A DNA stretch of 64,000 bases from Nostoc sp. (GTDB lineage Bacteria > Cyanobacteriota > Cyanobacteriia > Cyanobacteriales > Nostocaceae): positions 160,001 through 224,000 of the forward strand of contig JBALDB010000067.1 of NCBI GenBank assembly GCA_036918135.1, given 5' to 3'. The position numbers and the translations under genes are program-made. Below, piece after piece: positions 2-56,132 of this stretch. The notes beneath the pieces are model-generated. The model had not been told where the DNA came from, searched no databases, and saw only the letters and a program-made list of their open reading frames with translations. How positions within the stretch are numbered: the first letter of the stretch is position 1; each line of letters starts with the position of its first letter.

Positions 2-1813
2 GAATCAGAGCAATTAACCTATCGAGAGTTGAATAACCGAGCAAATCAACTAGCACACTACCTGCAAGAACTGGGAGTAAAACCAGAGGTATTAGTGGGG
101 ATTTGTGTGGAGCGCTCTCTAGAGATGGCGATCGGGCTATTAGCTATTCTCAAAGCAGGTGGGGCATATATACCGCTAGATCCAATGTACCCACCAGAAC
201 GGTTAACTTTCATGCTAGAGAATGCCAATATCTTCGTCTTATTGACTCACAAATGCCTAGCGGATAAGTTATCAGAGTATAAAGGCTATGTAATTTGTTT
301 GGACACAGATTCGGAAGCCATAGCCCAACAAAGCCAAGAAAATCAAGTCAGTGGTGTCACACCAGACAATTTAATCTATGCGATCTACACATCTGGGTCA
401 ACAGGAAAACCTAAAGGGGCAGGAGTCTACCAACGAAGCTTTACCAATCTGCTGAATTGGTTTGTAACAGAATTTAATCTGACCAGCAGCGATCGCGTTT
501 TACTCATATCTTCTTTAAGTTTCGATTTGACGCAAAAGAATATTTACGCCCCTCTACTCGTGGGAGGTGAGTTGCATCTTTTGTCATCCGGATGCTACGA
601 CGCAGCACAAATCGTTGAGTCGGTCTGTGACAAGCAAATAACATGGCTCAACTGCACTCCGAGCGCCTTTTATCCATTGATAGATCGAGGCGATCGAAGT
701 TTGTCTATGAAGAAGACGCTGAGGTATGTATTTTTGGGTGGTGAACCTATTTCGATATCTAGGCTAAAGCTATGGCTCGATCGTGTTCCCTGCAAAACAC
801 AAATTGTAAACACTTACGGCCCAACCGAGTGTACAGACATTTGCGCGGCTTATCGGGTAACTCAACCAGAACAATTGTTAGAAAAAGTAGTACCGATTGG
901 GAAGCCGATTCATAATGCCAAAGTATACGTGTTAGATGGAAATCTCAAGCCTTTACCGATGGGTATGGTAGGTGAACTCTATGTTGGTGGTGAAGGAGTC
1001 GGACGAGGCTATATCAATAATTTAGATCTGACTTTAGCTAAGTTTGTTTGCAATCCTTTCAGCCTCAAACCAGGCGCATGGCTATACAAAAGCGGGGATT
1101 TGGCTCGTTATTTAAGTGATGGTAATATCGAGTTTCTCGGTCGGATTGATAACCAGGTGAAGATTCGCGGTTTTCGGATCGAACTTGAAGAAATTGAAGT
1201 AATCATTAGTCAACACCCAGCAGTCAAGGCGAGTGTGGTTGTAGTTAGTGAGGATGAATCAGGTTTTAAGCGTTTGGTAGCGTATCAAGTCCTTCACCCA
1301 GAACAATCACTGACAGTTAGTGAGTTGCGCTGCTTCTTACAGTCTAAGTTGCCGAACTACATGATACCAAATGCCTTGGTAATACTAGAGGTACTGCCAC
1401 TAACCCCCAACGGCAAGATTGATAGGCGATCGCTACCTGCACCAGAAACTCTTGACTTAGAGTTAGAAGTTGCTTATGTGATGCCACAAACCCAGATGGA
1501 ACGAACCATCGCTACTGTTTGGCAAGATGTCTTACATGTGGAAAAGGTGGGCGTAAATGACAATTTCTTTGAAATCGGTGGTCATTCATTATTAATGGTT
1601 CAAGTCAATAGCAAATTACAAGAAGTTTTGCAAAGAGATTTATCAGTTGTAGAAATGTTTCAGAATCCAACTGTAAATTCCCTAGCACAATATTTAAATC
1701 AAAAACAACAACTTTCTTTTACAGGAACACGCGATCGCGCCAATAAGCAAATTGAGGCCATCAATCGCCAAAAGCAATTATTGAGCAAACAAAATAAAAA
1801 GAATTATGAATAA
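2..1813 (+). CDS. NRPS, 5'-truncated (A-T plus C-terminal docking helix)
   Basis: The frame is open from base 2 (ESEQLTYRELNNRANQLA, A1 motif). Motifs: YTSGSTGKPKG, NTYGPTE, YKSGDL and carrier FFEIGGHSLL. The stop overlaps the next ATG. By-eye code DLKNFGTDIK; substrate not assigned. Confidence 0.95.
   Translation, partial: ESEQLTYRELNNRANQLAHYLQELGVKPEVLVGICVERSLEMAIGLLAILKAGGAYIPLDPMYPPERLTFMLENANIFVLLTHKCLADKLSEYKGYVICLDTDSEAIAQQSQENQVSGVTPDNLIYAIYTSGSTGKPKGAGVYQRSFTNLLNWFVTEFNLTSSDRVLLISSLSFDLTQKNIYAPLLVGGELHLLSSGCYDAAQIVESVCDKQITWLNCTPSAFYPLIDRGDRSLSMKKTLRYVFLGGEPISISRLKLWLDRVPCKTQIVNTYGPTECTDICAAYRVTQPEQLLEKVVPIGKPIHNAKVYVLDGNLKPLPMGMVGELYVGGEGVGRGYINNLDLTLAKFVCNPFSLKPGAWLYKSGDLARYLSDGNIEFLGRIDNQVKIRGFRIELEEIEVIISQHPAVKASVVVVSEDESGFKRLVAYQVLHPEQSLTVSELRCFLQSKLPNYMIPNALVILEVLPLTPNGKIDRRSLPAPETLDLELEVAYVMPQTQMERTIATVWQDVLHVEKVGVNDNFFEIGGHSLLMVQVNSKLQEVLQRDLSVVEMFQNPTVNSLAQYLNQKQQLSFTGTRDRANKQIEAINRQKQLLSKQNKKNYE
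489..496. repeat. HIP1 octamer GCGATCGC (representative copy; many throughout)
   Basis: Further copies at e.g. 1426, 1731, 2580 and 19873. HIP1 is a hallmark of cyanobacterial DNA. Confidence 0.9.
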
Positions 1814-4800
1814 CGTTACAAATTCTCATCTTTTAGAAGGTATTGCTGTTATTGGAATGGCTGGGCGCTTTCCTGATGCTAAGAATGTTTTTAGTTTTTG
1901 GCAGAATTTATCTAATGGAGTTGAGTCAATTTCGGCGTTTACAGATGAAGAATTAATCGCCTCTGGAGTTTCACCAGAACTACTCAACAATCCTAATTAT
2001 TTAAAAGTTGGAGCTATATTAGAAAATATCGATTTCTTCGATGCTACATTCTTTAGTTTTAATCCCAAAGAAGCAGAAATTACCGACCCGCAACATCGTT
2101 TGTTTTTAGAATGTGCATGGGAAGCACTAGAAAATGCTGGTTATGCTTCCCAAAGCTGTGAAAGTAGAATTGGTGTTTATGCTGGCGCTAGTTTAAATAA
2201 TTATCAATCATTTAATTTAAACCGCGACCAAATTGGGTCGGCGAATACTTTCCAAAAAATGATTGGTAATGATAAAGATTTCCTTGCTACTCGTGTTTCC
2301 TATAAATTAAATCTTACAGGCCCAAGTCTGACGGTACAAACTGCTTGTTCTACCTCCTTGGTGGCAACTTCTTTAGCTTGTCAAAGCTTATTGAATTATC
2401 AGTGTGACATGGCTTTGGCTGGGGGAGTATCTGTTCGTATTCCTCAAAAAACAGGGTATTTACATCAAGAAGGGGGAATTTTATCACCTGACGGTCACTG
2501 TCGCGCCTTTGATGCCAAAGCAAGAGGAACAATTATTGGTAATGGTGCCGGAGTAGTGGTTTTAAAGCGGTTAGCTGAGGCGATCGCCGATGGTGACAAT
2601 ATATATGCTGTAATCAAAGGTAGTGCTGTAAATAATGATGGCTCTGGTAAAGTAGGTTACACAGCACCTAGTGTGAACGGACAAGCTCAAGTGATTGCAG
2701 AGGCACTTGCTCTAGCAGATGTGGAACCCGAAACGATTAACTATATAGAAACTCACGGTTCGGGAACTGTCTTAGGCGATCCGATTGAAATTTCTGCTTT
2801 AACCAACGTTTTTCGTGAAAGTACTCATAAAAAAGGATTTTGTGCAATTGGTTCAGTGAAAACGAATATCGGTCATTTGGATGCAGCAGCAGGAGTTACA
2901 AGTTTAATTAAAACCGTTTTGGCTCTCAAACATCAACAAATTCCCCCCAGCTTAAATTTTGAAGAACCAAATCCAGAAATTGATTTTGCCAATAGTCCTT
3001 TTTACGTCAACACCAAGCTGAGAGAATGGCAAACTACTGATACTCCTCGGCGTGCAGGTGTGAGTTCTTTGGGTATAGGTGGGACTAATGCTCACGTCAT
3101 TTTAGAAGAAGCCCCAACCCTGCCAGAATCTAGTCCTTCTCGTCCTTGGCAGTTATTGGTACTTTCAGCCAAAACAGACTCAGCATTAAAAAGCGCTACT
3201 GTCAATCTGGCAGATTATCTCAAACAGCATCCCGATTTAAACCTTGCAGATATTGCTTATACGTTGCAGTGTGGACGACAAGTTTTTGAGCATCGCCAGA
3301 CAGTTGTCTGTCAAGATATTGTAGATGCGATCGCCGCACTTGCAGATCCAAAGCGCTTACTTAACAATGTTCAACAAACTGAAGAACGTCCCCTAGCCTT
3401 TATGTTTCCAGGGCTTGGTACTCAATATGTCAACATGACTGTTGAACTTTACCAAGTTGAACCGACATTTCGCCAAAAAATTGACTATTGTTGTGAATTT
3501 CTCAAACCGCTTCTTGGTCAAGATTTGCGAGATGTCCTCTATCCCAGTAGAAACAGTGAAAATCACACTCAGCAAAAAAGCACTCTGGGCACTGGGTTAG
3601 ATTTGCGAAAAATGTTAGGTCGTGGCGTTGAACAAGCAGATATAGCCACTGAAAAACTCAATCAAACCGCTCTAACTCAGCCAGCTATTTTTGTGATTGA
3701 GTACGCCTTGGCGCAGTTGTGGATGTCATGGGGAATTCGTCCTACGGCAATGATTGGCTACAGCATCGGTGAATACGTTGCGGCTACCTTGGCAGGAGTG
3801 TTGTCTGTTGAAGATGCTTTAACTCTTGTCGCTAAAAGAGCGCAAATGATTCAGGAATTACCAAGTGGCGCAATGTTGGCTGTCCCCCTTTCGGAAGAAG
3901 AGGTGCGTCCCTTGTTGAATGAGAATCTTTGTTTGTCAGCAATCAACGGTTCGCAACAGTGCGTAATTGCTGGCGTTATAGAGGCTGTGGATGAATTAGA
4001 AAGCAAGTTGACTCAAAGAGGATTAGCCTGTCGGCGTTTGCAAACTTCCCATGCTTTTCATTCAAACATGATGGATGCGATCGCCCAACCATTCACCAAC
4101 TTAGTAAAAACTCTTAATCTCCAGCCACCCAAAATTCCCTATTTATCTAACGTCACGGGAAACTGGATTACAGCAGCCGAAGCGACAAATCCCACATACT
4201 GGACAAAGCATCTATGTGAACCTGTGCGTTTTGCAGATGGAATTCAACAATTGGAGAAAAAACAAAATCCGATTCTCTTGGAGGTGGGAGCAGGACAAAC
4301 GCTCAGCAGTTTAGCTTTACAGTGTTTGGATAACGGCTTTTCTACAGGTCGAGTCGTACTCCCCTCGCTGAAGCATTCCTACGAGCGACAGCCAGATTTG
4401 GCTTTCTTGCTTAAAACATTAGGTCAGTTGTGGCTCTCAGGAGTGCAGATTGATTGGTCGGGCTTTTATGCTGCCGAGCGCCGTTATCGCCTTCCCTTAC
4501 CAACTTATCCCTTTGAGCGCCAACGTTACTGGATTGAACCGCAAACATTATCTTCACCTCAGCAGTTCCACCCCAGAGTGACAGCATCAGAGCTTTGGAA
4601 GTCTCTGGTAGAAGCTGCTCAGATGCAAGCGATTCAAGGGAGTTTGGAATTTGACGACCAGACTTATCGAGCAAACAAACAATGCTTAGATAGTTTATGT
4701 ACTGCTTACATGAGCTTTGCTCTGAAGCGTTTAGGTGCATTTAGCGATTCAGCCAAAAAGTATTCTATTGAGGAATTATTCGAGCAATCTTCTATTATTC

Positions 4801-7655
4801 CTAAATATCGTGAATTGTTGTCTAGGTGGTTGGAAGTACTAGTAGAGCAAGGTCAGTTACAGCAAGAGCAGGGCCTATTTACCAACTTTTTACCATCGTC
4901 AACAGAGGATATCAATACTCTTTTAGAAGAAGTCAGAGTCAGATGGGCAGATACACCTCAAAATATTAACTTGATCCAAATCTTTGGTGAAAATCTGGTA
5001 GCTGTGCTGACTGGTGAAAAAGAACCATTGGAGTTACACGTTGCCACATTAGTCAACCAAGGAGAAATTTCTCGACAAAATTTGCCCTCTGAAGTTTACT
5101 TAAGAGGCATTATGCGGGCAATGCTGCAAAAGCTGACAACAACTTTACCAGCAGACGCGAACCTGAGAATTTTAGAAATCGGCGGTGGAACTGGGATTGC
5201 TACAGAGGAATTACTACCTGTGCTATCATCCCCGCACGCAAACTATACTTTTACCGATGTCGGTGGTTTTTTCGTCAAAGAAGCCAAAAATAAGTTTAGT
5301 GTGTATCCTTTTGTGGAATATGGCTTACTAGACATCGAGCGATCGCCACAACAGCAGGGTTACAATAGCCACAGCTTTGATGTGGTGGTAGCTGTAAATG
5401 TATTGCACATAGCCCGCAACATCGAACAAACCCTAGAGCATGTTCGTTCTTTATTAGCTCCTGGAGGCTTCTTACTGCTGTGGGAAATTACTCAACCTAG
5501 ACCAGAGTCGGACATGATTGATGCTCTGATCATGAATCCCATAGAAGATGAAACAGGCAGCCGCAACATGGCTAATCCATTTTTATCAAAGGAGCAGTGG
5601 CAAGAAGCCCTGAAATCCTGTGGTTTTGTTGAGGTGGCAGCTTTCTCTGAATTTGAAGCCTTTGGCGAACATGTGTTTATTGCTCAGGTTGCTGACTCAA
5701 CAGGATTATCAGCACCAGCAGCATTTACAACTTTAGTCAATGGCAAGGTTGACAAGCTGCCTCAAGTCTTGTCAGATAAAAAGCCGGACATTGCTGACTG
5801 GTTCTATATCCCATCCTGGAAACGCTCAATGCCACCTCAGCCTTTTAAATTGACTCTGCCAAGATGCTGGTTAGTATTTGTCGATGAGTGCGGCTTGGGT
5901 GCCCAAGTAGTGAAGCGACTCCAACTTGAAAACCAGAATGTTATTACCGTCAAGAAGGGAGAGCAATTTAGCAATCAGAGCAAATCTTCTCCAGATGTAG
6001 GTGGTCAACAATACACAATCAATCCTCGACAACAGGATGACTACCATACCCTACTCAAAAAACTTCGCACCCTAGATTTAACCCCCTCAACAATTGTTTA
6101 TTTATGGAGTGTTACACCGCCCGATCGCTTAGAATTAGAACTTGAATCCGTAGACTCCCAAGACTTAGACTTTTACAGTTTGCTATTTCTAGCCCAGGCA
6201 ATTGGAGAACAAAATCTCACAGATTCCCTGGAAATTGCAATTGTGTCAAATAATATGCAGGAATTAACAGGCCAAGAGACGCTGTCTCCGGAAAAAGCAC
6301 TAGTTCTCGGGCCTTGTAAAATTATTCCGTTGGAGTATCCAAATATCAACTGTTGTAGTATTGATGTCGTTCTTCCTGAAGTTCAAAGTTGGCAAGGGGA
6401 TAAACTCGTAGACCAACTACTGAACGAGCTACATACTCAACCATCTGAGCAGATTATCGCTTACCGGGGCAATCATCGCTGGGTACAGACCTTTGAGCCA
6501 ATTCGACTGGATGAAACTGTTGAAGGACAAACACGCTTGAGGGAAGGAGGAGTCTATCTAATTACGGGTGGATTAGGAGGCGTTGGTCTAGTGTTGGCAG
6601 AGTTTTTAGCACAGACCGTCAAAGCAAAACTGATACTGACTGGACGTTCGGCTTTTCCCGATCGCCACGAGTGGTCACAATGGCTATCCACTCACGATGA
6701 ATCCGACAGTATCAGCTGTAAAATCCGAAAATTACAAGCGATCGAGGCGTTGGGTGCAGAGGTATTGTTAGTCAGCGCTGATATTGCCAACCTCGAACAA
6801 ATGTCGGGTGCGATCGCTCAGGCAAATAATCGATTTGGTCAAATTCATGGCGTAATTCATACCGCAGTAGTTCCAGGGGGAGGTCTGATTCAACTCAAAA
6901 CAAAAGCAGCAGCAGCAAATGCTCTTGCACCGAAAGTCAAGGGAACACGAATCCTCGATATTCTCTTTAAGAATGCCAAACTGGATTTCTTTGTACTCTG
7001 TTCATCAAGTAGTACATTTCATCCTGTAGCGGGTATGGTAGACTACATTGCTGAAAATGCCTTTCTTGATGCGTTCGCTCACTACAGTGTCTCTAAATAC
7101 GGCAAGTTTACCAGAGCCATTGACTGGGATAGATGGAGCAATTTAGGAACCGCAGTAGCTGTTGAAGCACGGTATAAAGCTCTAATACAGAAAGAGATTG
7201 CGCCAGGAATGATACCAGAAGAAGGCATTGAGGTATTTAAACGGATTCTCTTGAATAGCACAGTGCCTCAAATAGTTGTATCAACGCAGGATTTACAGAT
7301 TGAGATTGAGCAGAAATTTTCCTTAGAAGTCTTAAAGAAAACTAACATATCCAAATCGGCATACCAAAGACCCCAACTCAGAAATGCTTATGTTGCTCCT
7401 ACCAGTGAGAGTGAGTCCAAGATTGCTGATATCTATCAAGAGTTATTAGGAATTGAGCAGGTAGGCATTCATGACAACTTCTTTGAGTTAGGAGGAGACT
7501 CCTTAATCGGAACCGTACTAATTTCTCAGCTTCGGAAAAACTTCCAGGTAGAACTATCTGTTCGTTGCCTCTTTGAAGCACCCTCTGTATTTGAATTGGC
7601 TTTAGTTATTGAAGAAACCATCATTGAAGAGTTAGAAAAATTATCTGAAGTTTAA
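1806..7655 (+). CDS. Type I cis-AT PKS module KS-AT-MT-KR-ACP
   Basis: KS TACSTS/HGSGT/NIGHL; AT GYSIG and HAFH; MT LEIGGGTG and VNVLH; KR GGLGGVG and DYIAEN; ACP FFELGGDSL; acidic C-terminal docking tail. Confidence 0.95.
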   Translation: MNNVTNSHLLEGIAVIGMAGRFPDAKNVFSFWQNLSNGVESISAFTDEELIASGVSPELLNNPNYLKVGAILENIDFFDATFFSFNPKEAEITDPQHRLFLECAWEALENAGYASQSCESRIGVYAGASLNNYQSFNLNRDQIGSANTFQKMIGNDKDFLATRVSYKLNLTGPSLTVQTACSTSLVATSLACQSLLNYQCDMALAGGVSVRIPQKTGYLHQEGGILSPDGHCRAFDAKARGTIIGNGAGVVVLKRLAEAIADGDNIYAVIKGSAVNNDGSGKVGYTAPSVNGQAQVIAEALALADVEPETINYIETHGSGTVLGDPIEISALTNVFRESTHKKGFCAIGSVKTNIGHLDAAAGVTSLIKTVLALKHQQIPPSLNFEEPNPEIDFANSPFYVNTKLREWQTTDTPRRAGVSSLGIGGTNAHVILEEAPTLPESSPSRPWQLLVLSAKTDSALKSATVNLADYLKQHPDLNLADIAYTLQCGRQVFEHRQTVVCQDIVDAIAALADPKRLLNNVQQTEERPLAFMFPGLGTQYVNMTVELYQVEPTFRQKIDYCCEFLKPLLGQDLRDVLYPSRNSENHTQQKSTLGTGLDLRKMLGRGVEQADIATEKLNQTALTQPAIFVIEYALAQLWMSWGIRPTAMIGYSIGEYVAATLAGVLSVEDALTLVAKRAQMIQELPSGAMLAVPLSEEEVRPLLNENLCLSAINGSQQCVIAGVIEAVDELESKLTQRGLACRRLQTSHAFHSNMMDAIAQPFTNLVKTLNLQPPKIPYLSNVTGNWITAAEATNPTYWTKHLCEPVRFADGIQQLEKKQNPILLEVGAGQTLSSLALQCLDNGFSTGRVVLPSLKHSYERQPDLAFLLKTLGQLWLSGVQIDWSGFYAAERRYRLPLPTYPFERQRYWIEPQTLSSPQQFHPRVTASELWKSLVEAAQMQAIQGSLEFDDQTYRANKQCLDSLCTAYMSFALKRLGAFSDSAKKYSIEELFEQSSIIPKYRELLSRWLEVLVEQGQLQQEQGLFTNFLPSSTEDINTLLEEVRVRWADTPQNINLIQIFGENLVAVLTGEKEPLELHVATLVNQGEISRQNLPSEVYLRGIMRAMLQKLTTTLPADANLRILEIGGGTGIATEELLPVLSSPHANYTFTDVGGFFVKEAKNKFSVYPFVEYGLLDIERSPQQQGYNSHSFDVVVAVNVLHIARNIEQTLEHVRSLLAPGGFLLLWEITQPRPESDMIDALIMNPIEDETGSRNMANPFLSKEQWQEALKSCGFVEVAAFSEFEAFGEHVFIAQVADSTGLSAPAAFTTLVNGKVDKLPQVLSDKKPDIADWFYIPSWKRSMPPQPFKLTLPRCWLVFVDECGLGAQVVKRLQLENQNVITVKKGEQFSNQSKSSPDVGGQQYTINPRQQDDYHTLLKKLRTLDLTPSTIVYLWSVTPPDRLELELESVDSQDLDFYSLLFLAQAIGEQNLTDSLEIAIVSNNMQELTGQETLSPEKALVLGPCKIIPLEYPNINCCSIDVVLPEVQSWQGDKLVDQLLNELHTQPSEQIIAYRGNHRWVQTFEPIRLDETVEGQTRLREGGVYLITGGLGGVGLVLAEFLAQTVKAKLILTGRSAFPDRHEWSQWLSTHDESDSISCKIRKLQAIEALGAEVLLVSADIANLEQMSGAIAQANNRFGQIHGVIHTAVVPGGGLIQLKTKAAAANALAPKVKGTRILDILFKNAKLDFFVLCSSSSTFHPVAGMVDYIAENAFLDAFAHYSVSKYGKFTRAIDWDRWSNLGTAVAVEARYKALIQKEIAPGMIPEEGIEVFKRILLNSTVPQIVVSTQDLQIEIEQKFSLEVLKKTNISKSAYQRPQLRNAYVAPTSESESKIADIYQELLGIEQVGIHDNFFELGGDSLIGTVLISQLRKNFQVELSVRCLFEAPSVFELALVIEETIIEELEKLSEV

Positions 7656-7767
7656 GCTAATGTTAACTTTGAAAAATTAAGTTGCCACTTTGAATCATTG
7701 ACTATTTCTTAAACTAAATATTACGTACTTAAGTACAAAAACATGTAAATGAAGGTTAATTAAAATT

Positions 7768-8622
7768 ATGAATATTCAAACAGTAGGTGTTGTTGGTGCG
7801 GGGGTCATGGGAATAGGGGTTGCACAAAATCTGGCTCAAACAGGTCATCAAGTCTTTCTAGTAGATATTTTAGAAAATATCTTGGATAAAGCTAAATATG
7901 AAATCAGGAATAATATCCGCTTTCAGAGTTTTTTTAAAAAAAGTAATAACACAGAAACTCCAGATAGTATCCTCAGTAAAATAGAGTTTTCAACAAACTA
8001 TAAAATTTTAGATAATACAGATTTTGTTATAGAAAATGTCACTGAAAAATGGGATATTAAAAGAGAGGTATATCCTTTACTAGATTCTATTTGTTCGCCA
8101 AATTGCGTATTTGCCGCTAACACATCAGCTATTCCCATTACCCGCATTGCTTCAGTCACCAAACGTGCCGATAAAATTGTTGGGATACACTTTATGAATC
8201 CTGTACCAATGAAGCCGATGGTGGAGATGATTCGCGGGTATCATACCTCTGATGCAACAATTGAGACAGCAAAACAAATGTTAGCTCAGATGGGTAAAGA
8301 ATCGATAATTGTTAATGATGCACCAGGTTTTGTTTCTAACCGGGTGTTGATGTTAACTATTAACGAAGCTATTTTTCTATTGCAAGACCAAGTTGCTACA
8401 GCAGAAGATGTGGACAAAATCTTTAAAGGTTGTTTTGGTCACAAAATGGGGCCTTTAGAAACAGCAGATTTAATTGGTCTAGACACAATTTTGTTTTCTA
8501 TTGAAGTCTTGTATGAAAGCTTTAACGATAGCAAGTACAGACCATGCCCTTTACTCAAAAAAATGGTAGATGCAGGGTTGCATGGTAAAAAAACTGGTAA
8601 AGGTTTTTACGTGTATCAATAA
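7768..8622 (+). CDS. 3-hydroxyacyl-CoA dehydrogenase family (FkbK/ZmaG-like glyceryl-ACP dehydrogenase)
   Basis: GVVGAGVMG Rossmann motif, ANTSAIPIT, GIHFMNP, GPLETADLIGLD. Adjacent to an ACP, an acyl-CoA dehydrogenase and FkbH. Confidence 0.9.
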   Translation: MNIQTVGVVGAGVMGIGVAQNLAQTGHQVFLVDILENILDKAKYEIRNNIRFQSFFKKSNNTETPDSILSKIEFSTNYKILDNTDFVIENVTEKWDIKREVYPLLDSICSPNCVFAANTSAIPITRIASVTKRADKIVGIHFMNPVPMKPMVEMIRGYHTSDATIETAKQMLAQMGKESIIVNDAPGFVSNRVLMLTINEAIFLLQDQVATAEDVDKIFKGCFGHKMGPLETADLIGLDTILFSIEVLYESFNDSKYRPCPLLKKMVDAGLHGKKTGKGFYVYQ

Positions 8623-8641
8623 ATAGGGAATATTAAGAATA

Positions 8642-8890
8642 ATGAACGAAATTCAATCTAAAATCAAAACTTTTCTTTCCAAATTCTTTAGCAATTATGA
8701 TTTACAACCGAACGAAGACATTTTTGCTCTAGGTTTTGTCAATTCTATGTTTGCTATGCAACTTGTTTTGTTTGTAGAGCAAGAATTTCAGATTGCTATT
8801 GAAAACGAGGATTTAGAATTTGAAAATTTCCGTACAATCAACTCTATCGCCAATTTAGTCGAACGTAAAACTGCTGTTCTCGTGCAGTAA
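8642..8890 (+). CDS. Stand-alone acyl carrier protein (FkbJ/ZmaD-like)
   Basis: 82 aa acidic protein with GFVNSMFAMQLV phosphopantetheine-site motif, typical of extender-unit ACPs; cassette context. Confidence 0.9.
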   Translation: MNEIQSKIKTFLSKFFSNYDLQPNEDIFALGFVNSMFAMQLVLFVEQEFQIAIENEDLEFENFRTINSIANLVERKTAVLVQ

Positions 8891-8930
8891 TTAAATAAAA
8901 GTTGCCATTTGATGCGGCAGAAATAGTATT

Positions 8931-10139
8931 ATGATGGAACTCTCTGCTCAACAAAAAAATGCTAAAGCTGAATTTAGAGCTTTTGCTAATCAGGAAATAT
9001 GTCCTAATGCTGGGGAATGGGATAAGAAAGAATTTACCCCACCAGAACTAATTAAGAAAATAGCTCAATGTGGTTTTCTTGGTGCTATATTGCCCCAAGA
9101 ATATGGCGGTCAAAAAATGGACATGATTACCTATGGCATTCTTAATGAGGAAATCGGACGCGGATGTTCTTCTATTAGGAGTTTGCTGACAGTTCACAAC
9201 ATGGTTGCTCATGCTTTGTGTAAATGGGGTAATAAATCTCAAAAACAGTATTGGCTTCCAAAATTTGCATCTGGAGAAGTCATCGCTGCTTTTGCATTAA
9301 GCGAGCCGAATGTCGGTAGCGATGCCAAAAGTGTAGAAACAACAGTAACACTTACTGGTGATGCTTATGTCTTAAATGGGCAAAAAAAATGGATTACCTA
9401 TGGACAAATAGCAGATGTATTTTTAGTCTTTGCTAAATGTGAGGAAAAACCCACTGCTTTTTTAGTTGAAAAAAATAGTCCTGGATTTTCAGTTAAACCA
9501 ATGTCTGGGATTTTAGGTGTTAGAGCTTCAATGTCAGCAGAATTGCAGTTTAACAATTGTCAAATTCCTCAAGAAAATTTAGTAGGTAAATTAGGTTTTG
9601 GATTTTCCTACATTGCGGCTACTGCACTTGATTATGGTAGATATAGTGTGGCATCGGGTTGTGTAGGTATTGCTCAAGCATGTTTGGAGGCTTGTATCAA
9701 GTATACAAATGAACGAAAACAGTTTGGCGTTTATCTCAAAGAACATCAATTAATCCGCCAAATGATTACTCAGATGATAACTAACGTTAAAGCAGCAAGA
9801 TTGTTATGTTACCAAGCTGGTTATCTCAAAGACATTAACGACCCTAACTCAATTATGGAAACTTCTATTGCTAAGTACTTTGCATCCACAGTAGCTACCA
9901 AAATAGCAAATGATGCCGTGCAAATTCATGGTGGCAATGGTTGTAGCAGTGAGTACCCAGTTGAAAGGTATTTACGCGACTCGAAAGTTATGGAAATCAT
10001 CGAAGGTAGTACTCAAATTCAAGAGATTACTATTGCAGAGTCAGGTTATCAAGATTATTTTTTTTCAAGTATAACTACTAATTCAAATAAAAAAGTATTG
10101 GATGAAAAGAATATTTTTCTAGCTACTAATAATAGCTAG
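8931..10139 (+). CDS. Acyl-CoA/acyl-ACP dehydrogenase (FkbI/ZmaE-like)
   Basis: AFALSEPNVGSDA, LNGQKKWIT, RKQFG, VQIHGGNG, IIEGSTQIQ. Confidence 0.92.
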   Translation: MMELSAQQKNAKAEFRAFANQEICPNAGEWDKKEFTPPELIKKIAQCGFLGAILPQEYGGQKMDMITYGILNEEIGRGCSSIRSLLTVHNMVAHALCKWGNKSQKQYWLPKFASGEVIAAFALSEPNVGSDAKSVETTVTLTGDAYVLNGQKKWITYGQIADVFLVFAKCEEKPTAFLVEKNSPGFSVKPMSGILGVRASMSAELQFNNCQIPQENLVGKLGFGFSYIAATALDYGRYSVASGCVGIAQACLEACIKYTNERKQFGVYLKEHQLIRQMITQMITNVKAARLLCYQAGYLKDINDPNSIMETSIAKYFASTVATKIANDAVQIHGGNGCSSEYPVERYLRDSKVMEIIEGSTQIQEITIAESGYQDYFFSSITTNSNKKVLDEKNIFLATNNS

Positions 10140-10179
10140 TAGTATTTAAAATCTCAAAACTATTATCAAGGTATATTTC

Positions 10180-11046
10180 ATGCAAGCTCAAACTAGTAAC
10201 TCAATTTTGAGAATTAAAAATCCTAGTCACAAAGAATTTATAGAACTTTGGAAGCAATATCAACCTTTTTTAATTGATGGTGTTGCTGAATATTGGAACG
10301 CCTGTCAAAATTGGTCTAATGATTATCTTTTAAAAAAATGTAAAAATAATATTATCCCTGTAGAATTTTCTCCTAAATCATATTTGGAGAATTTTGAATA
10401 TGTTTTAGAGAAAACTTATGCTAGCGAAGAGATGAAATTAAAAGAATATGTAGATATAATTACTAAAAATAAAAAAGAAATTGATTTTGAATATTATATG
10501 GCTCAGGTAGACTTTGAAAAGTATTTTCCTGAACTAACTGGTGATATAAATTCTCCTGAGTTCTTTAATATAAAACCATTGATTAATTTCTGGTTCGGTT
10601 CCTCTGGTAGAACTAGCACTCTTCACTTCGATCTGGAACATAATATTTTTACTCAAATTCGAGGTAGAAAAAGAATACTTCTGTTTCCTCCTTTTAATTA
10701 TCTATCATTATATCCTCCTCTTAGAGAAAGTGGTGCTCATGCTCATTTTAGTAAAGTAGATCCTATTAACCTCGATTTAGAATTATTTCCAAAATTTCCT
10801 TGGCAAGACAAAATAGAAGTTGTACTTCAAGCTGGAGAAATGCTATATATACCACCTATTTGGTGGCATCATGTAACAGCATTAGATGATAACATATCAT
10901 TGTCATTTTGGTATGATGTAAAAATTCAAGATGTTTTCAAGCAAAAAAAATTTTTATCTACTGTTTTGAATATATTACCTCATTATTTACTTCATTCCAG
11001 TTCTTCTTTAACTAGACTTAAATTAATTATTCAATCTATTTGGTAA
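10180..11046 (+). CDS. JmjC/cupin-8 Fe(II)/2-oxoglutarate hydroxylase
   Basis: HxD...H triad: TLHFDLEHN...GRKRILLFPP...GEMLYIPPIWWHHV. Confidence 0.88.
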   Translation: MQAQTSNSILRIKNPSHKEFIELWKQYQPFLIDGVAEYWNACQNWSNDYLLKKCKNNIIPVEFSPKSYLENFEYVLEKTYASEEMKLKEYVDIITKNKKEIDFEYYMAQVDFEKYFPELTGDINSPEFFNIKPLINFWFGSSGRTSTLHFDLEHNIFTQIRGRKRILLFPPFNYLSLYPPLRESGAHAHFSKVDPINLDLELFPKFPWQDKIEVVLQAGEMLYIPPIWWHHVTALDDNISLSFWYDVKIQDVFKQKKFLSTVLNILPHYLLHSSSSLTRLKLIIQSIW

Positions 11047-11202
11047 AAGTAATTTTCAGTAAATTTTTAACAACTATATAAGTGAATAAATAGCTAATAT
11101 GTTAGGTATTATATAAATAGTAAAATAATCAGATAAAGTTCTCAAATCTCAAACTTTAGTTACTACTGTTTTCTAAATAAATTATTAAAGATAGTTAAAA
11201 AG

Positions 11203-12270
11203 ATGATTAGTATTCAAGAGCAAGATATCAATAGTAAACAAGATAAAAAAGTTATTAAATGTGTCGTTTGGGATTTGGATAATACTATATGGTACGGAGT
11301 TTTGCTGGAAGATGAGAAAGTTACTTTGCAAGAAAATATACTTAAAATTATTCATACTTTAGATAGTCGTGGTATTCTCCAATCTATAGCTAGTAAGAAC
11401 GAACGTACTACAGCAATAACTAAACTAGAAGAATTTGGTTTAAAAGAGTATTTTTTATATCCACAAATAAATTGGAATTCTAAAGCAGCTTCTATTAAAG
11501 AAATTGCTAAGTTACTGAATATTGGTCTGGATGCGATCGCTTTCATTGATGACCAATTATTTGAACTAGAAGAAGTAAAATTTTCCTTACCAGAAATTCT
11601 TTGTATAAATGTAGATGAAATAGAAAATATCTTAGATATGCCTGTGATGAATCCCCGTTTTATTACGGAAGATTCACGAATTAGAAGATTGATGTATATT
11701 AGTGATATAGAGCGTCAAAATGCCGAGAAAGAGTTTATTGGTGCAGCAGACGAATTCTTAGCTACTCTGAAGATGAAATTTATCATATCTTCTGCCAAAG
11801 AAGAAGATTTACAACGTGCAGAAGAATTAACATTACGAACTAACCAATTAAATACAACTGGTTATACCTACTCCTATGACGAACTCAATCATTTTCGCTC
11901 TTCAGAAAACCATAAACTACTAATTGCAAGTCTAGAAGATAAGTATGGCACTTACGGAAAAATAGGTTTAACTCTGCTCGAATGTGAAACAGAAATATGG
12001 ACAATCAAGCTTTTGCTGATGTCTTGTCGGGTTATGTCAAGGGGAGTCGGGATAATTATGTTAAATCATATCATGAGTCTGGCTCAAAGCAATAATGTTC
12101 GTCTTGTAGCAGAGTTTATCTCAAATGACCGTAACAGAATGATGTATATATCTTATAAATTTGCCGGGTTTAAGGAAATTAAGAATAATGGTAGTTCAGT
12201 TATTTTGGAAAACGATTTAAGTCGGATTCAACCTATACCTTCATATGTAGATTTTCAAGTAATTGCTTAA
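11203..12270 (+). CDS. fkbH: FkbH-family glyceryl-ACP synthase (HAD-IIIC phosphatase/acyltransferase)
   Basis: KCVVWDLDNTIW HAD motif, SIASKN, FIDD, RTNQLN and LLMSCRVMSRG with the catalytic Cys. Confidence 0.93.
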   Translation: MISIQEQDINSKQDKKVIKCVVWDLDNTIWYGVLLEDEKVTLQENILKIIHTLDSRGILQSIASKNERTTAITKLEEFGLKEYFLYPQINWNSKAASIKEIAKLLNIGLDAIAFIDDQLFELEEVKFSLPEILCINVDEIENILDMPVMNPRFITEDSRIRRLMYISDIERQNAEKEFIGAADEFLATLKMKFIISSAKEEDLQRAEELTLRTNQLNTTGYTYSYDELNHFRSSENHKLLIASLEDKYGTYGKIGLTLLECETEIWTIKLLLMSCRVMSRGVGIIMLNHIMSLAQSNNVRLVAEFISNDRNRMMYISYKFAGFKEIKNNGSSVILENDLSRIQPIPSYVDFQVIA

Positions 12271-25276: not shown

Positions 25277-27907
25277 ATGAAGCCAAAGCTGTTACCAAAA
25301 ATTTTCTTAGTAGTGAGTTCTATTTCGTTTTGGGGTGCAATGAGCGCTACTGCTCAAGAAATACCCAAGCAAGAGGTAGAAAGAAAGTCTGTTGCATCGG
25401 TAGTTCACAATTCCAAGTTAATCAAACAGATTCGCCAATTCTCTGAGATAGAGCATCCCAAGACAAACGCCCAAATGTTAGTGCAGTCGCCAGCACCCTC
25501 ATCAGAAATTGTGCAGGTTACAGGAGTTAAAGCTACTCCCACCGACAAAGGTGTGGAAGTGATTTTACAGACTTCCAAAAGCGCGCAACTGCGAATCACA
25601 AATCGCAGTACTGGGAATAACTTTATTGCTGATATACCTAACTCACAACTACGTCTACCTAATGGTGATGCTTTTACATTTCGTTCAGAAAAACCGCTTG
25701 CAGAAATTACTGAGATAACAGTTAGAAATCTTGATGCAAATACTATCCGGGTGACAGTGATAGGTAACACAGCACTGCCAACGGTTGAGTTATTTGATGA
25801 TGATACAGGTTTGGTTTTTGGGGTAGTATCTGCTGCAACTGCGACACAGCCACCAAACCAGCCGACGACTGAGACGAAGCCAGAGGAACCTACAGCACAG
25901 CAGGATCAACCGATTGAGTTGGTAGTGACGGGCGAGCAAGACGGCTATAACGTACCTGATGCCAGTGTGGGCACCCGAACCGACACACCTTTGCGCGATA
26001 TTCCCCAATCGATTCAGGTAGTACCGCAACAGGTGATTAAAGACCAGCAAGCAACTCGCCTCACAGAAGTGTTAAAAAATGTGCCGGGTGTTGTAGTAGG
26101 AGGTCGAAGCCCTCGCGATCCTCTCAATATCTATACTATTCGCGGCTTTAGTGCTTTTTCAGATACTCTACTCAATGGGGTACAAGACCGTTCAATCGGG
26201 AGTGTCGGGTTTGGCTCTAATGCAAATGTTGAGCGGGTTGAAGTGCTTAAAGGACCCGCTTCGGTTCTATTCGGTCAAGGCGGACTCGGCGGCGTAGTCA
26301 ATATAGTAACCAAGCAACCATTGCGCGATCCGTTCTACTCCGTGGAAGCCTCTGCTGGCAACTACAATGCCTATAACGGTGCAATTGATTTATCTGGGCC
26401 GTTGAATGACAGTAAAACGGTGTTGTATCGCCTAAATGCTTCTGCTGGAACAACCGAAAGCTTTATTGATTTCTACAATCAACAGGAATATCTAATTGCA
26501 CCTAGTATAAGCTGGCAAATTAGTGACAGAACAAAGCTGACCCTAGAAGCAAGCTATTCTCTTGCACAAGGGCCCTATGATTTTGGAATACCAGCACAGG
26601 GAAGTATACTGCCTAACCCCAATGGCGAAATTCCTCGTAATCGTTTTCTGAGTGAACCTGGTTTCAATAACGCGGCTAATGGTGCATTTCGGATTGGTTA
26701 TAACTTTGAACATCGCTTTAGCGAGAACTGGCAAGCACGGAGCGTTTTTCAGACTTCTTTGTTTCACCTGAGACGAAATATTGTGTTTCCTTTTGGATTA
26801 GAAGATGATTTGCGTACTGTAGGTAGAGGGATTGAGGATTTTGACTACGATGAAAATGCTTATAATCTTGACAATTATGTGGTCGCTAAGTTGACAACAG
26901 GTAGTATCAAGCATCAGCTAGTTGCTGGATTTAACTTGAGTAGAACTGACACTAATACTAACGATATCTACAGTGACACTACTCCTCTGGATATTTTTAA
27001 TCCTGTGTATGGAAATATTACAGAAAATTTTCTTCCAGATTATAATTACCAAAGTAGGCAGCAACAATTAGGTTTTTACATTCAAGACCAAATCACCCTA
27101 GCAGAAAACTTAAAAGTACTTTTGGGTGGGCGCTATGACATTGCCAATTCAAAGTTTAGAGATTTATTCAATCAAACAAGCGACTTTAGCCAAGCAGAAG
27201 CTTTTAGCCCCCGTGTTGGAATTGTTTACCAGCCCATTCAACCGCTCTCACTCTACGCCAGCTATAGCCGTTCATTCAATTCGGGATCGTCTGCATTTGG
27301 TGTAGGTACACCACAACCAGAGCGAGGAACGCAGTATGAAATCGGGGTTAAAGCAGATTTGAGTAACCGATTAGCTGCAACCTTGGCATTTTATGATTTG
27401 ACTCGCACAAATCTACCAACCTCAGATCCAAACGATCCTCGATTAACAATTCTAGTTGGGGAACAGCGCAGTCGTGGGATTGAATTTGATGTTTCTGGCG
27501 AAATCTTACCGGGGTGGAACATCATTGCTGGCTATGCCTACACTGATGCAGTAATTACGGAAGATAACGACTTACCAGTAGGTAATCAACTGAATAATGT
27601 GCCAAAACATGCGCTCAACCTCTGGACAACTTACGAAATTCAATCTGGCAGTTTAAAAGGATTAGGTTTCGGTCTAGGAGCCTTTTTCTACGGAGACAGG
27701 AAAGCCGACTTAGTAGATAACACGGTTGAGTTACCTAGTTATATACGCACAGATGCAGCTATTTATTATAAGCGAGACAATTACCAGGCTGCGATCAATA
27801 TCAGGAATTTATTTGACAGTGATTATTTTGTCTCTGCACAAAACCTGAATCGGATTATACCTGGCGATCCCCTGACAATTCAGGGTACAATTACCTGGCA
27901 GTTTTGA
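25277..27907 (+). CDS. TonB-dependent siderophore receptor with N-terminal AMIN domain
   Basis: Signal peptide, AMIN-like region (VTGVKATPTDKGVEVIL), TonB box IELVVTGE, plug motifs TPLRDIPQSIQVV and VERVEVLKGPASVLFG, and C-terminal outer-membrane signature TITWQF. Confidence 0.96.
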   Translation: MKPKLLPKIFLVVSSISFWGAMSATAQEIPKQEVERKSVASVVHNSKLIKQIRQFSEIEHPKTNAQMLVQSPAPSSEIVQVTGVKATPTDKGVEVILQTSKSAQLRITNRSTGNNFIADIPNSQLRLPNGDAFTFRSEKPLAEITEITVRNLDANTIRVTVIGNTALPTVELFDDDTGLVFGVVSAATATQPPNQPTTETKPEEPTAQQDQPIELVVTGEQDGYNVPDASVGTRTDTPLRDIPQSIQVVPQQVIKDQQATRLTEVLKNVPGVVVGGRSPRDPLNIYTIRGFSAFSDTLLNGVQDRSIGSVGFGSNANVERVEVLKGPASVLFGQGGLGGVVNIVTKQPLRDPFYSVEASAGNYNAYNGAIDLSGPLNDSKTVLYRLNASAGTTESFIDFYNQQEYLIAPSISWQISDRTKLTLEASYSLAQGPYDFGIPAQGSILPNPNGEIPRNRFLSEPGFNNAANGAFRIGYNFEHRFSENWQARSVFQTSLFHLRRNIVFPFGLEDDLRTVGRGIEDFDYDENAYNLDNYVVAKLTTGSIKHQLVAGFNLSRTDTNTNDIYSDTTPLDIFNPVYGNITENFLPDYNYQSRQQQLGFYIQDQITLAENLKVLLGGRYDIANSKFRDLFNQTSDFSQAEAFSPRVGIVYQPIQPLSLYASYSRSFNSGSSAFGVGTPQPERGTQYEIGVKADLSNRLAATLAFYDLTRTNLPTSDPNDPRLTILVGEQRSRGIEFDVSGEILPGWNIIAGYAYTDAVITEDNDLPVGNQLNNVPKHALNLWTTYEIQSGSLKGLGFGLGAFFYGDRKADLVDNTVELPSYIRTDAAIYYKRDNYQAAINIRNLFDSDYFVSAQNLNRIIPGDPLTIQGTITWQF

Positions 27908-28876: not shown

Positions 28877-31800
28877 ATGAGTGTTGCGATGCCTAATTCT
28901 CTGAATGGTTCAGAAATAGCAGTTATCGGCTTAACAGGGTGTTTCCCTGGAGCAAAAAATATTGATGAATTCTGGGAAAATCTCCAACAAGGTAGAGAAT
29001 CAATCTCTGTTTTTACTGACGAAGAACTGTTGTCATCAGGTATAAGTTCGTCAACATTAAATGATCCTAATTATGTAAAAGCACACGCTATATTAGAAGA
29101 CGCAGAATTATTTGACGCTTCATTCTTTGGCTTTAATCCCAGAGAAGCAGAAATTACCGATCCCCAGCATCGAATTTTTCTAGAGTGTGCTTGGTCAGCT
29201 TTGGAAAGTGCTGGATACGATTCGCAAACTTATAAAGGTGCTATTGGTGTTTATGGTGGCTCTAGTTTGAGCAGCTACTTACTTAATATTTATCTAAATC
29301 AAAATATTATAAATTCTATCGATCCTCAACAACTGACAATAGCAGCTAATAAAGATTATTTAACTACTCGCGTTTCTTACAAACTCAATTTAGAAGGGCC
29401 AAGTTACGCAGTGCAAACTGCCTGCTCAACTTCATTAGTTGCTGTTCACTTAGCTATCATGAGCTTGCTCAATGGCGAATGTGACATTGCTTTAGCTGGT
29501 GGTGTTGCTATTAATGCAGAAAGAAAAGCTGGATATATGTATACAGAAGGAGGAATAGCGTCTCCTGACGGACATTGCCGTACCTTTGATGCTAAGGCAA
29601 AAGGGTCTGTAGGCGGTGAGGGTGTGGGCATTGTAGTGTTGAAGCGATTAGAAGATGCTTTAAACGATCGCGATCGCATTCATGCTGTAATCAAAGGATC
29701 GGCAATTAATAACGATGGTTCATTCAAGGTAAGCTACACAGCACCCCGCATCGATACTCAAGCAAAGGTGATTAGAACAGCCCAAATCGTAGCTGAAGTA
29801 GAACCTGAGACAATTACTTACATTGAAGCTCACGGTACAGCAACAGTCTTAGGAGATCCCATCGAAATTGCCGCCCTGACACAAGCTTTTCGCTCTAGTA
29901 CCCAAAAGAAAGGATTCTGCGCCATTGGTTCGGTTAAAACCAATATTGGGCATTTGGATACTGCGGCTGGTGTAACGGGACTTATCAAAACCGTTCTAGC
30001 CCTCAAGCACAAACAAATACCACCCAGCTTACACTTTGAGCAACCTAATCCGGAAATTGACTTTGCTAATAGTCCCTTTTACGTCAATACTACACTTGCC
30101 CAATGGCAGACGCATGGCACACCTCGACGTGCAGGAGTTAGTTCTTTTGGACTTGGAGGAACCAATGCCCATGTAATTCTTGAAGAAGCCCCAATTGTTG
30201 AACCTTCCAGTTCCTCTCGGACTTGGCAGTTGTTGATGTTATCTGCCAAAACAAGTTCAGCACTGGAAACGGCTACCACAAATCTAGCTAATTACTTCCA
30301 AGAGCATCCCGATTTAAACCTCGCGGATGTAGCTTATACATTACAAATTGGGCGCAGAGCTTTTGAGCATCGGCGCACAGTTGTCTGCCGAGATATTCAA
30401 GATGCTATCGACGCACTTCAAGATTCCAAACGAGTTCTCACCAGTACTCACAAAACTCAGGAACGCTCTGTTGCTTTCATGTTTTCTGGACTGGGAACCC
30501 ACTACGTTGATATGGGTCTCGAACTTTACCAAACTGAGCCAACATTTCGTGGCTGTGTTGACCAATGCTGCGAACTTCTCAAATCCCACCTAAGTCTGGA
30601 TTTGCGAGATATTCTGTATCCCAATAGAAACAGTGAGAATGGAAATAAATCAAATACTCTCTCTGGTGGGCTAGATTTGCGAAAAATGCTCGGTCGAACA
30701 ACGCAACCAGCAGATGTAGCCACGCAAAAACTCAATCAAACCGTTTATACCCAACCAGCTCTGTTCGTGATTGAATACGCTTTAGCTCAATTGTGGATAT
30801 CCTGGGGAATTCGTCCTACGGCAATGATTGGCTATAGCATCGGTGAATATGTCGCAGCAACTCTAGCAGAAGTTTTATCTTTGGAAGACGCTTTAACCTT
30901 GGTAGCTAAAAGAGCGCAAATGATTCAACAGTTGCCTGAAGGAGCAATGTTGGCAATTGGGCTTTCGGAAGCGGAAATACAGCCTTTGTTAAATGAAAAG
31001 ATTTCTTTATCTGCAATTAACGGCTCATCATTATGTGTGATTGCAGGTGCTACCGATGCTATTGAGGAAGTAGAACGACGGTTGAGTGAAAGAGGTTTAA
31101 TTGGTAAACGTTTACAGAGTTCTCATGCTTTTCATTCTGTGATGATGGAAGCGATCGCACCTAGCTTTTATAATTTAGTTCAAACATTCACTCTCAAACC
31201 GCCAACAATTCCTTATTTATCCAACGTTACCGGAACTTGGATTACAGCAGACCAAGCAACAGATCCGAGTTATTGGGTACAGCACCTCTGTCAAGCAGTA
31301 CGCTTTGCTTCGGGAGTGCAACAATTATCGCAAAAAGATAATCCGATTTTATTAGAAGTTGGCCCCGGTCAGGCATTGAGCAGTTTCGCACTGCAATGTC
31401 TAGAAAATGAGGATAGAACAACATCGGTGATATTGCCTTCCCTGCGGCATTCTTACGAGCAACAATCAGATGTTGCATTTTTAATCAATACATTGGGTCG
31501 CCTGTGGTTGGCTGGGGTAAAAGTAGACTGGTCTGGTTTTTATACCCACGAAGAACGCGGTCGCATTCCCTTACCGACGTATCCTTTTGAACGTCAGCGT
31601 TACTGGATAGATGCTAACCCTGAAGCTAATTTGGCAACGCCACTACAGAAAAAAACTAATATTACCGACTGGTTTTATATGCCCTCCTGGAAACGCTCTC
31701 CACAGATAACAGCAAAACCAGCACAAAAGTTATGTAATTTAGTATTTATTGATACTAATTGTATAGGTTCAGAAATTGTCAAACAGTTGGAATTACAAGG

Positions 31801-39365: not shown

Positions 39366-39482
39366 TGTCAGCAAAGCGATCGCTCGAATCTTAATGACCT
39401 GTAGAATCGAATATTTTAGAGTTAAGCAGGCGTCATAATATTCTTACCGCAAAAACAAATTAAAAAAATATTGCAACCCAAT

Positions 39483-55249: not shown

Positions 55250-55364
55250 AGACTTTAAAAAGTAACGTAATTTTATTTTACTCATTATTAAAAACATTAT
55301 TTAAACTATAAATTTGGCAAAAAAATAATTGTAAATATTTACTTATAAATAGGAAAAATTGTTT

Positions 55365-56132
55365 ATGTCTGTAGCAACTAATTCTCTTATATCTTCAGTT
55401 AGCAATCTTCCAAATTATGAACCAATTGCTCGCTTACAGAACGAATTCAAGAATAGAGATGAATTTATAGTAGACGGTGTAATACCTTTTTTAGAGCAAA
55501 TATTATTTCCATATATTTCTAAAGAAGCGCGTATTCTCGACCTTGGTTGTGGTTGTGGACATTTAGTGCAACAGCTTCACCTGAAAGGGTATCAAATGAC
55601 TGGAATTGATGCATCTGAAGGATTATTGCATTATGCTCGAACAAACGCACCTGAGAGTGAATTCATCTTTGGTGATATACGCAACTTTGAGTTGCCACTT
55701 ACCTTCAATGCTATTATTTCAATCGATGTTTTACTTTTCATTCTTAATAATGAAGACTTGACAGCTATCTTCCGAAATGTATATGCAGCACTAGAGAACA
55801 AGGGTCTGTTCGTGTTTTCGATACCATTAATAGAATTGATGCATAAGCAGACTGAAGAGGGTTCTTTCAATCATATCTATGTCAATGATGAATGTGCTTT
55901 TATTGAATTATTTAACTACAATCCGGAAAAAAAGATGTGGAAAATTGAAGTTACCGGATTTGAATTAGTAGAAAAAACTTGGAAGCGTTCAGACACTACT
56001 TGGCTGAGAAAGGATCACTTATTCACAGATGTCCAATCGGCTTTAGAAAATGTGGGCTTCACAGAAATTAGTCATCTTGATGCTGGCGGGCTAGGAGGTA
56101 GCGCTTGCTTTGTTTGTCATAAACATGTCTAG
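55365..56132 (+). CDS. Class I SAM-dependent methyltransferase
   Basis: RILDLGCGCG, TGIDAS, GDIRNF. ATG at 55365 follows an AGGA RBS. Confidence 0.88.
   Translation: MSVATNSLISSVSNLPNYEPIARLQNEFKNRDEFIVDGVIPFLEQILFPYISKEARILDLGCGCGHLVQQLHLKGYQMTGIDASEGLLHYARTNAPESEFIFGDIRNFELPLTFNAIISIDVLLFILNNEDLTAIFRNVYAALENKGLFVFSIPLIELMHKQTEEGSFNHIYVNDECAFIELFNYNPEKKMWKIEVTGFELVEKTWKRSDTTWLRKDHLFTDVQSALENVGFTEISHLDAGGLGGSACFVCHKHV

Follow-up and report, generated by a model that had tools for sequence, protein, structure and literature searches.

Two of the five cis-acting acyltransferase (AT) domains in a hybrid NRPS-PKS cluster of Nostoc sp., here called AT1 and AT2, form a distinct subtype. As judged from sequence, a neighbouring cassette very probably makes hydroxymalonyl bound to an acyl carrier protein (ACP), which AT1 and AT2 transfer to the ACP of their own module, giving a 2-hydroxyl group at both modules. 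The window, i.e. the whole stretch of DNA analysed, comprises 64,000 nt (GCA_036918135.1, contig JBALDB010000067.1, forward-strand positions 160,001-224,000) and contains most of this cluster; the source belongs to the Nostocaceae (GTDB lineage Cyanobacteriota; Cyanobacteriales).

AT1 and AT2 are set apart from the three downstream ATs by F[PS]GLG instead of FSGQG, GYSIG instead of GHSIG, and an insert containing GLDLRKMLGR (Table 1). Motifs and alignment agree on this contrast, which the first-pass annotation had drawn, and the motif scan finds HAFH in each of the five domains, as had also been claimed. The insert is longer than the 20 or so residues originally given: the alignment and the GxG-to-GxS spacing (116-117 in AT1/AT2 vs 91 in the comparison ATs) put it at 25-26 residues. 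Its description as basic holds for the DLRKMLGR core (+2) and fails for the whole inserts of AT1 and AT2, whose net charges are 0 and +1. Of the canonical malonyl-CoA set (GHS[LVI]G, HAFH and GQG), both domains have HAFH; the other two places are taken by GYS and GLG. In the alignment AT1 and AT2 are 69% identical, and either is 52-54% identical to the comparison ATs. That AT1 and AT2 were recently duplicated, or made alike by gene conversion, is ruled out by this 69% identity and by the trees, in which each has a separate sister.

Both domains are predicted from their Ser, His and Arg residues to be active PKS acyltransferases. Arg678 of AT1 lies 25 residues past the catalytic Ser, the same spacing as for the carboxylate-binding R217 of ZmaA; according to motifs and alignment, AT2 likewise retains the catalytic Ser and His and the carboxylate-binding Arg. 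These three residues (the Arg being R148 of the alignment) are invariant in 52/52 aligned sequences.

Table 1. Positions of AT domains, diagnostic motifs and cassette genes within the window.
Feature	Position	Strand	Evidence
PKS module KS-AT(insert type)-MT-KR-ACP	1806-7655	+	Pfam, motifs
AT1, insert-type acyltransferase domain	3399-4442	+	PF00698, residues 532-879; best PDB match ZmaA-AT 4QBU
FPGLG of AT1, Leu replacing Gln of GQG	3405-3419	+	motif scan
AT1 insert, 26 aa	3552-3629	+	edges as alignment places them
GLDLRKMLGR, core of AT1 insert	3594-3623	+	motif, alignment
GYSIG of AT1, catalytic Ser653	3756-3770	+	motif
KRAQM of AT1, contains Arg678	3834-3848	+	motif, alignment to ZmaA
HAFH of AT1, including catalytic His	4050-4061	+	motif
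In-module methyltransferase (MT), C-methyltransferase family	5172-5474	+	Pfam; top PDB match CurJ 5THY
3-Hydroxyacyl dehydrogenase, putative ZmaG/FkbK role	7768-8622	+	Pfam
Stand-alone ACP, GFVNS motif; 12 acidic, 6 basic residues	8642-8890	+	Pfam, alignment
Acyl dehydrogenase, putative ZmaE/FkbI role	8931-10139	+	Pfam
Cupin/JmjC protein within cassette; absent from most related cassettes	10180-11046	+	Pfam
Stand-alone FkbH	11203-12270	+	TIGR01686, 271 bits vs cut-off 146.65
PKS module KS-AT(insert type)-KR-ACP plus C/E-type domain	28877-34906	+	Pfam
AT2, insert-type acyltransferase domain	30476-31477	+	Pfam, motifs, alignment
FSGLG of AT2	30482-30496	+	motif
AT2 insert, 25 aa	about 30629-30703	+	alignment
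GLDLRKMLGR, core of AT2 insert	30668-30697	+	motif, alignment
GYSIG of AT2	30830-30844	+	motif
HAFH of AT2	31124-31135	+	motif
Comparison AT (gene at 41180), FSGQG/GHSIG/HAFH, no insert	42800-43786	+	Pfam, motifs, alignment
Comparison AT (gene at 45895), FSGQG/GHSIG/HAFH, no insert	47491-48477	+	Pfam, motifs, alignment
Comparison AT (gene at 50576), FSGQG/GHSIG/HAFH, no insert	52175-53155	+	Pfam, motifs, alignment

Among the fetched proteins, 265 of 286 ATs with G[LVI]G and GYS contain the insert core. Its residues are strongly conserved (D 95%, L 90%, R 95%, M 82%, L 92%, R 96%); the flanks vary in sequence and length. Over 81 sequences, the net charges of complete inserts cluster around zero. 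In the AlphaFold model (mean pLDDT 92, with the less confident insert-core region at 62-72), the core is a short helix with the conserved Leu/Met/Leu and two Arg. The insert immediately precedes the stretch that aligns to RMEFSQ of ZmaA (an RVDVVQ-type motif), near the pocket lid, and may help the AT to recognise its donor ACP. The core LDLRKML (3591-3626) resembles the helix just upstream, QDLRDVL (3513-3548; LDLRDIL in AT2), so that the insert may have arisen by tandem duplication.

Insert-type (n=110) and malonyl-type (n=20) ATs also differ at A679, I682, Q/E746, C804 and Q831, with replacement of basic residues that are usual in the malonyl-type set (H by Q746, R by C804, R by Q831). A His three residues past the GxG residue occurs in 66/110 insert-type vs 0/20 malonyl-type ATs; a passage of PMC9301873 describes His at apparently the same position after GxG in three ACP-extender pathways. 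Variants of HAFH (RAFH, RPFH and HPFH, at loci L050, L093, L063 and L104) may mark another substrate. A permissive DNA pattern built on the insert only was abandoned as it yields mostly chance matches: 23 of its 111 matches fall at known insert-type ATs, and of the other 88, 36 were checked and 0/36 lay within an AT.

The cassette (7768-12270) starts directly after the gene of the first module. With FkbH, a stand-alone ACP and both dehydrogenases, the cluster has the complete zwittermicin-type hydroxymalonyl gene set, which makes hydroxymalonyl-ACP in the zwittermicin pathway according to passages of PMC4207774 and PMC6395733. By analogy with that pathway, FkbH would load glycerate onto the cassette ACP, and the two dehydrogenases would oxidise the ACP-bound glycerate to hydroxymalonyl. 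AT1 and AT2 would then accept hydroxymalonyl from this small ACP rather than use malonyl-CoA, so introducing an alpha-hydroxyl group into the chain at their modules; the three GHS/GQG ATs would load malonyl-CoA. Module 1 combines its insert-type AT with a C-MT-family methyltransferase, so the unit it adds could be 2-hydroxy-2-methyl or 2-methoxy. A C-MT-family domain within an insert-type module is also seen at L012, L013, L015, L016, L017, L028, L034 and L080.

The link between AT subtype and cassette was followed in two partly overlapping samples, one of 301 genomes from the order and one of 251 from the family; the genomes within each are related and so not independent, and counts are given without a P value. 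In the order sample, the DNA pattern for GYS, which has 0 reversed-control matches in the 301 genomes, occurs in 22/301. Full-length FkbH (at least 67% identity; the remaining FkbH matches, at most 35%, lie within long ORFs) occurs in 20/301, and all 20 are among the 22. Both GYS-only matches are KS-AT-monooxygenase modules without the insert motif. On reading the DNA, 21/21 cassettes of this sample outside genome G000 adjoin an insert-type AT; the pair in G053 spans a contig break, and one insert-type AT had been missed by the GYS pattern.

The family sample has GYS in 60 genomes, FkbH in 61 and both in 55, these 55 being scored by the GYS pattern, with the insert read in a minority. Within 30 kb, 56/66 FkbH copies have a GYS match, and 78/96 GYS matches have an FkbH. 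The insert motif is absent from 5/5 GYS-only genomes; of the FkbH-only genomes, 4/6 have an insert-type AT-ACP (GYSIS) directly after fkbH, and in the other 2/6 fkbH is on short contigs of 2.4 and 10 kb. The expected co-occurrence of insert and fkbH is thus borne out as a tight link in the order (20/20) and, with the GYS pattern standing for the AT type, in the family (55/61). The full motif set did not prove common in clusters lacking fkbH, as the GYS-only genomes have no insert motif. The genome that contains the window has four GYS ATs, all with GLG and insert: two in the window and two on contig C7, which has a second cluster with its own cassette.

GYS by itself was rejected as a signature, since it is present in ATs without the insert (L021, L086, L092, L234-L236, L245-L247) and is carried by ZmaA-like ATs. 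A seeming exception, the L181 cassette flanked by GHS ATs, was discarded when an insert-type AT turned up about 24 kb away.

Beyond cyanobacteria, the insert subtype is found in Acidobacteriota, Chloroflexota, Actinomycetota and Myxococcota. From 120 homologs, whose named sources include Acidobacteriota and Chloroflexota, 199/219 parsed ATs have both G[LVIM]G and GYS as well as the long spacing; together with the 0 control matches, this makes chance an implausible source of the signature. In Herpetosiphon, a long run of insert-type KS-AT-KR-ACP modules ends at a cassette, and the cluster is reported, in a passage of PMC3368417, to hold hydroxymalonyl-ACP genes. At L027 and L099, a stand-alone insert-type AT lies by the cassette and the AT of the next module has no Ser. 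The proposal of a signature for cyanobacteria thus needs amending: the set does track the FkbH cassette there, but it spans several phyla, and GYS alone is unspecific and already published.

A scan of bacterial genomes matched at least 130 stretches, of which 79 were listed with flanks. Among these listed matches, 43 genomes have no FkbH within 10 kb, and 37/43 have a full-length FkbH elsewhere. The 6/43 without one comprise one chance match, three GQG ATs without the insert, and the loci L037 and L093. L037, in a draft genome, has at 5811-10477 a stand-alone GVG/GYSLG AT beside an amino acid-ACP ligase and dehydrogenases. L093, in the near-complete genome G333, is a real exception: its insert-type AT (GIG/GYSLG/RAFH) belongs to a two-gene PKS stretch adjoining a transposase, and there is no cassette in about 75 kb around the AT and no full-length FkbH in G333.

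This exception would fit a reading in which AT1 and AT2 simply load malonyl-CoA in the usual way, or have no activity, and the signature is co-inherited with the cassette as one block. HAFH, and a branched residue following the Ser, are malonyl fingerprints (a passage of PMC9301873) and can be read in the same way, as can the usual position of the cyanobacterial AT module, in the gene adjoining the cassette. This explanation is nevertheless extremely unlikely: the association persists in different phyla and module types, with stand-alone ATs, and over as much as about 24 kb, the Ser, His and Arg are invariant, and most cassettes would be left without a distinct AT for their product.

The best PDB match of AT1 in both sequence and fold is ZmaA-AT (4QBU; 40% identity, TM 0.84), for which the use of hydroxymalonyl-ACP has been shown (a passage of PMC4207774). 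Shared features are the Tyr of GYSxG (GYSFG in ZmaA), a GxG without Gln (GNG in ZmaA), the same Arg and the four-gene cassette. Unlike AT1 and AT2, ZmaA has no insert, has GAAH for HAFH, and has a hydrophobic MCM patch. Passages of PMC4207774 list GYS for ZmaA and ZmaF and assign ACP recognition to the hydrophobic patch; where this published patch reads MXW/MXM, AT1 has A-C-R and AT2 has I-G-K. FkbA-type methoxymalonyl-ACP ATs, as described in PMC4207774, likewise use an ACP-bound glycolate-type extender. Their described mark is MXW(X)5YASH; AT1 and AT2 do not have the MXW patch, and the cluster has no FkbG-type O-MT.

Trees were built without the insert and without the two diagnostic columns (FastTree, 179 rows; IQ-TREE quick, 54 rows). 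ZmaA-like proxies (L075 and others, standing in for 4QBU) lie among the no-insert ATs, across a branch with an SH-aLRT of 99 from the insert type. All insert-type ATs are on one side of this branch; with an outgroup, the no-insert group nests within them by weak forks. The AT phylogeny suggested at first pass therefore separates AT1 and AT2 from the ZmaA-like proxies, which fall in the no-insert group (support 99). Given this grouping, and the lack of an insert in ZmaA itself, the biochemistry of ZmaA is not transferable to AT1 and AT2 by descent.

Could these ATs load a different ACP-bound unit? One candidate is methoxymalonyl, formed by an MT that the cluster encodes; another, for other genomes, is aminomalonyl. 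The window offers an in-module MT and another, stand-alone one at 55359-56132; just beyond the window lies an O-MT. The in-module domain, however, belongs to the C-MT family; PF01596 O-MTs come no closer to the cluster than about 120 kb, and the MTs within it include no PF01596 or PF05050 match, hence no FkbG/FkbM-type MT. A better fit to the published methoxymalonyl mark is given by loci L003, L045 and L180, where an FkbM MT fused to AT-ACP is followed by a second AT with CLFL/CLCL and HAPH. As to aminomalonyl, the aminomalonyl-ACP trans-AT ZmaF has GYSLG, like the insert type, and an ACP-bound extender (PMC4207774, Table 2), and the L037 AT sits beside an aminomalonyl-like cassette. By its description, ZmaF differs in having GPFH and a serine-derived cassette; among the ORFs of the window's cluster there is no stand-alone serine-activating or serine-loading enzyme, second ACP or second acyl dehydrogenase, as the aminomalonyl set comprises. 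A different unit at AT1 and AT2 is thus quite improbable, and hydroxymalonyl is preferred.

The gene content at L037 suggests an aminomalonyl cassette, possibly with a route that dispenses with a ZmaJ-type enzyme, the ligase being seryl-tRNA-synthetase-like. With one copy of the AT type adjoining such a cassette, 'ACP-bound extender' is a safer term than 'hydroxymalonyl only'. The original idea that these ATs load an ACP-bound extender stands as regards a distinct subtype, likely specific for hydroxymalonyl and tied to the FkbH cassette; hydroxymalonyl as the sole unit for all copies does not.

The closest likeness in motifs is to stand-alone myxobacterial proteins of glycolate-extender pathways. 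AAK19884, the soraphen AT-ACP-O-MT protein, which we take to be SorC, has LPGLG, GYSLG, ELDLRRMLGRR and HAFH; its database name is 'putative methoxymalonyl-CoA synthase'. CCE88382, also AT-ACP-O-MT, has FPGLG, GYSLG, VDLRRMLGR and HAFH, and is presumably PelG of the pellasoren pathway, going by neighbouring accessions in Table 1 of PMC4768178. Both have all three features of AT1 and AT2; unlike these, they are not parts of extension modules. AT1 and AT2 fit the set of the AAK19884/PelG type (G[LVI]G, DLRxMLxR insert, GYS and HAFH together), a class defined in the present analysis rather than in the literature. HliQ of haliangicin enters the comparison by its description, P0220 being from a different Haliangium strain.

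Passages of the PMC4768178 supplement and of PMC6395733 state that the AT of PelG/HliQ is 'supposed' to load 1,3-bisphosphoglycerate, redundantly with FkbH. Extended to AT1 and AT2 through the signature in CCE88382 and AAK19884, this would have them load glycerate, from 1,3-bisphosphoglycerate or glyceryl-ACP, for later oxidation on the module ACP. Such loading is highly improbable: the published statements on PelG/HliQ are predictions, the carboxylate-binding Arg is invariant, and FkbH with a separate ACP is present in nearly every case, which makes loading by the AT redundant. That this AT type also occurs within extension modules raises the likelihood of a hydroxymalonyl relay, and suggests that the ATs of PelG/HliQ, too, may take hydroxymalonyl from the small ACP and not 1,3-bisphosphoglycerate.

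Contig C7 encodes one AT-ACP-FkbM protein, an architecture as in the soraphen-type AT-ACP-O-MT proteins. After it comes another, stand-alone AT, which has GQG/GHS, HAPH and a hydrophobic stretch reading CLFL. In the module upstream of the cassette, the AT serine is lost. This stretch (L002:9642-L003:8025) probably relays methoxymalonyl in trans. L045 and L180 have the AT pair as well, and L237, L239, L242 and L243 have a form of the arrangement without the MT and with GYSIS. A link to aetokthonostatin, for which a figure legend names OH-mal, was dropped, as the AesD-length AT has GQG/GHS and no insert; nor could the window's cluster be matched to any known compound.

It is possible, though rather doubtful, that these domains make up an unrecognised and widespread AT class. 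Its DLRxMLxR helix would bind the FkbH-loaded ACP in place of the ZmaA patch, and it would mark hydroxymalonyl modules in roughly one in four of the family genomes sampled. The AT of SorC/PelG/HliQ would act as a hydroxymalonyl relay to the O-MT; combined with a C-MT, as in module 1, the class would build a 2-hydroxy-2-methyl unit. If so, it would be a second solution to the recognition of ACP-bound extenders. A search of mostly open-access papers turned up neither an account of the insert or the three-part signature nor a hydroxymalonyl-ACP pathway from cyanobacteria. The anabaenolysin cluster is a possible cyanobacterial precedent.

A passage of a 2017 paper (PMC5355916) lists the hydroxymalonyl extender only for Bacillus, Xenorhabdus, Paenibacillus and Streptomyces; full-length FkbH in 61/251 family genomes contrasts with that list. 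With a sequence rule that recognises hydroxymalonyl-loading ATs, product predictions would be put right for many clusters in which HAFH implies malonyl; the rule also offers a testable answer to the apparent duplication of FkbH by PelG/HliQ. Stand-alone insert-type ATs are candidate tools for placing alpha-hydroxyl groups in engineered polyketides.

The cluster has further unusual features. Pfam places a luciferase-like monooxygenase inside an adenylation (A) domain (34929-39365); by analogy with ZmaL, it might cleave the chain there and split the line into two products. MtaG is a comparable case. A TonB-dependent receptor gene lies within the cluster (25277-27907) and in the related clusters L248, L250, L099 and L185; together with the FAAL start and the cupin and TauD enzymes, it suggests a lipopeptide metallophore. 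An aspartate decarboxylase, PanP, scores above its cut-off (39471-41123), and the last A domain (56272-60366) lacks the usual Asp (FVDSVWE), which fits beta-alanine. In the KR of the second insert-type module, STGYG takes the place of the PKVKG seen in others, so that the usual Lys is missing. The last PKS (50576-55249) matches KR weakly, and its KS motif, NVGHPNI, is unusual.
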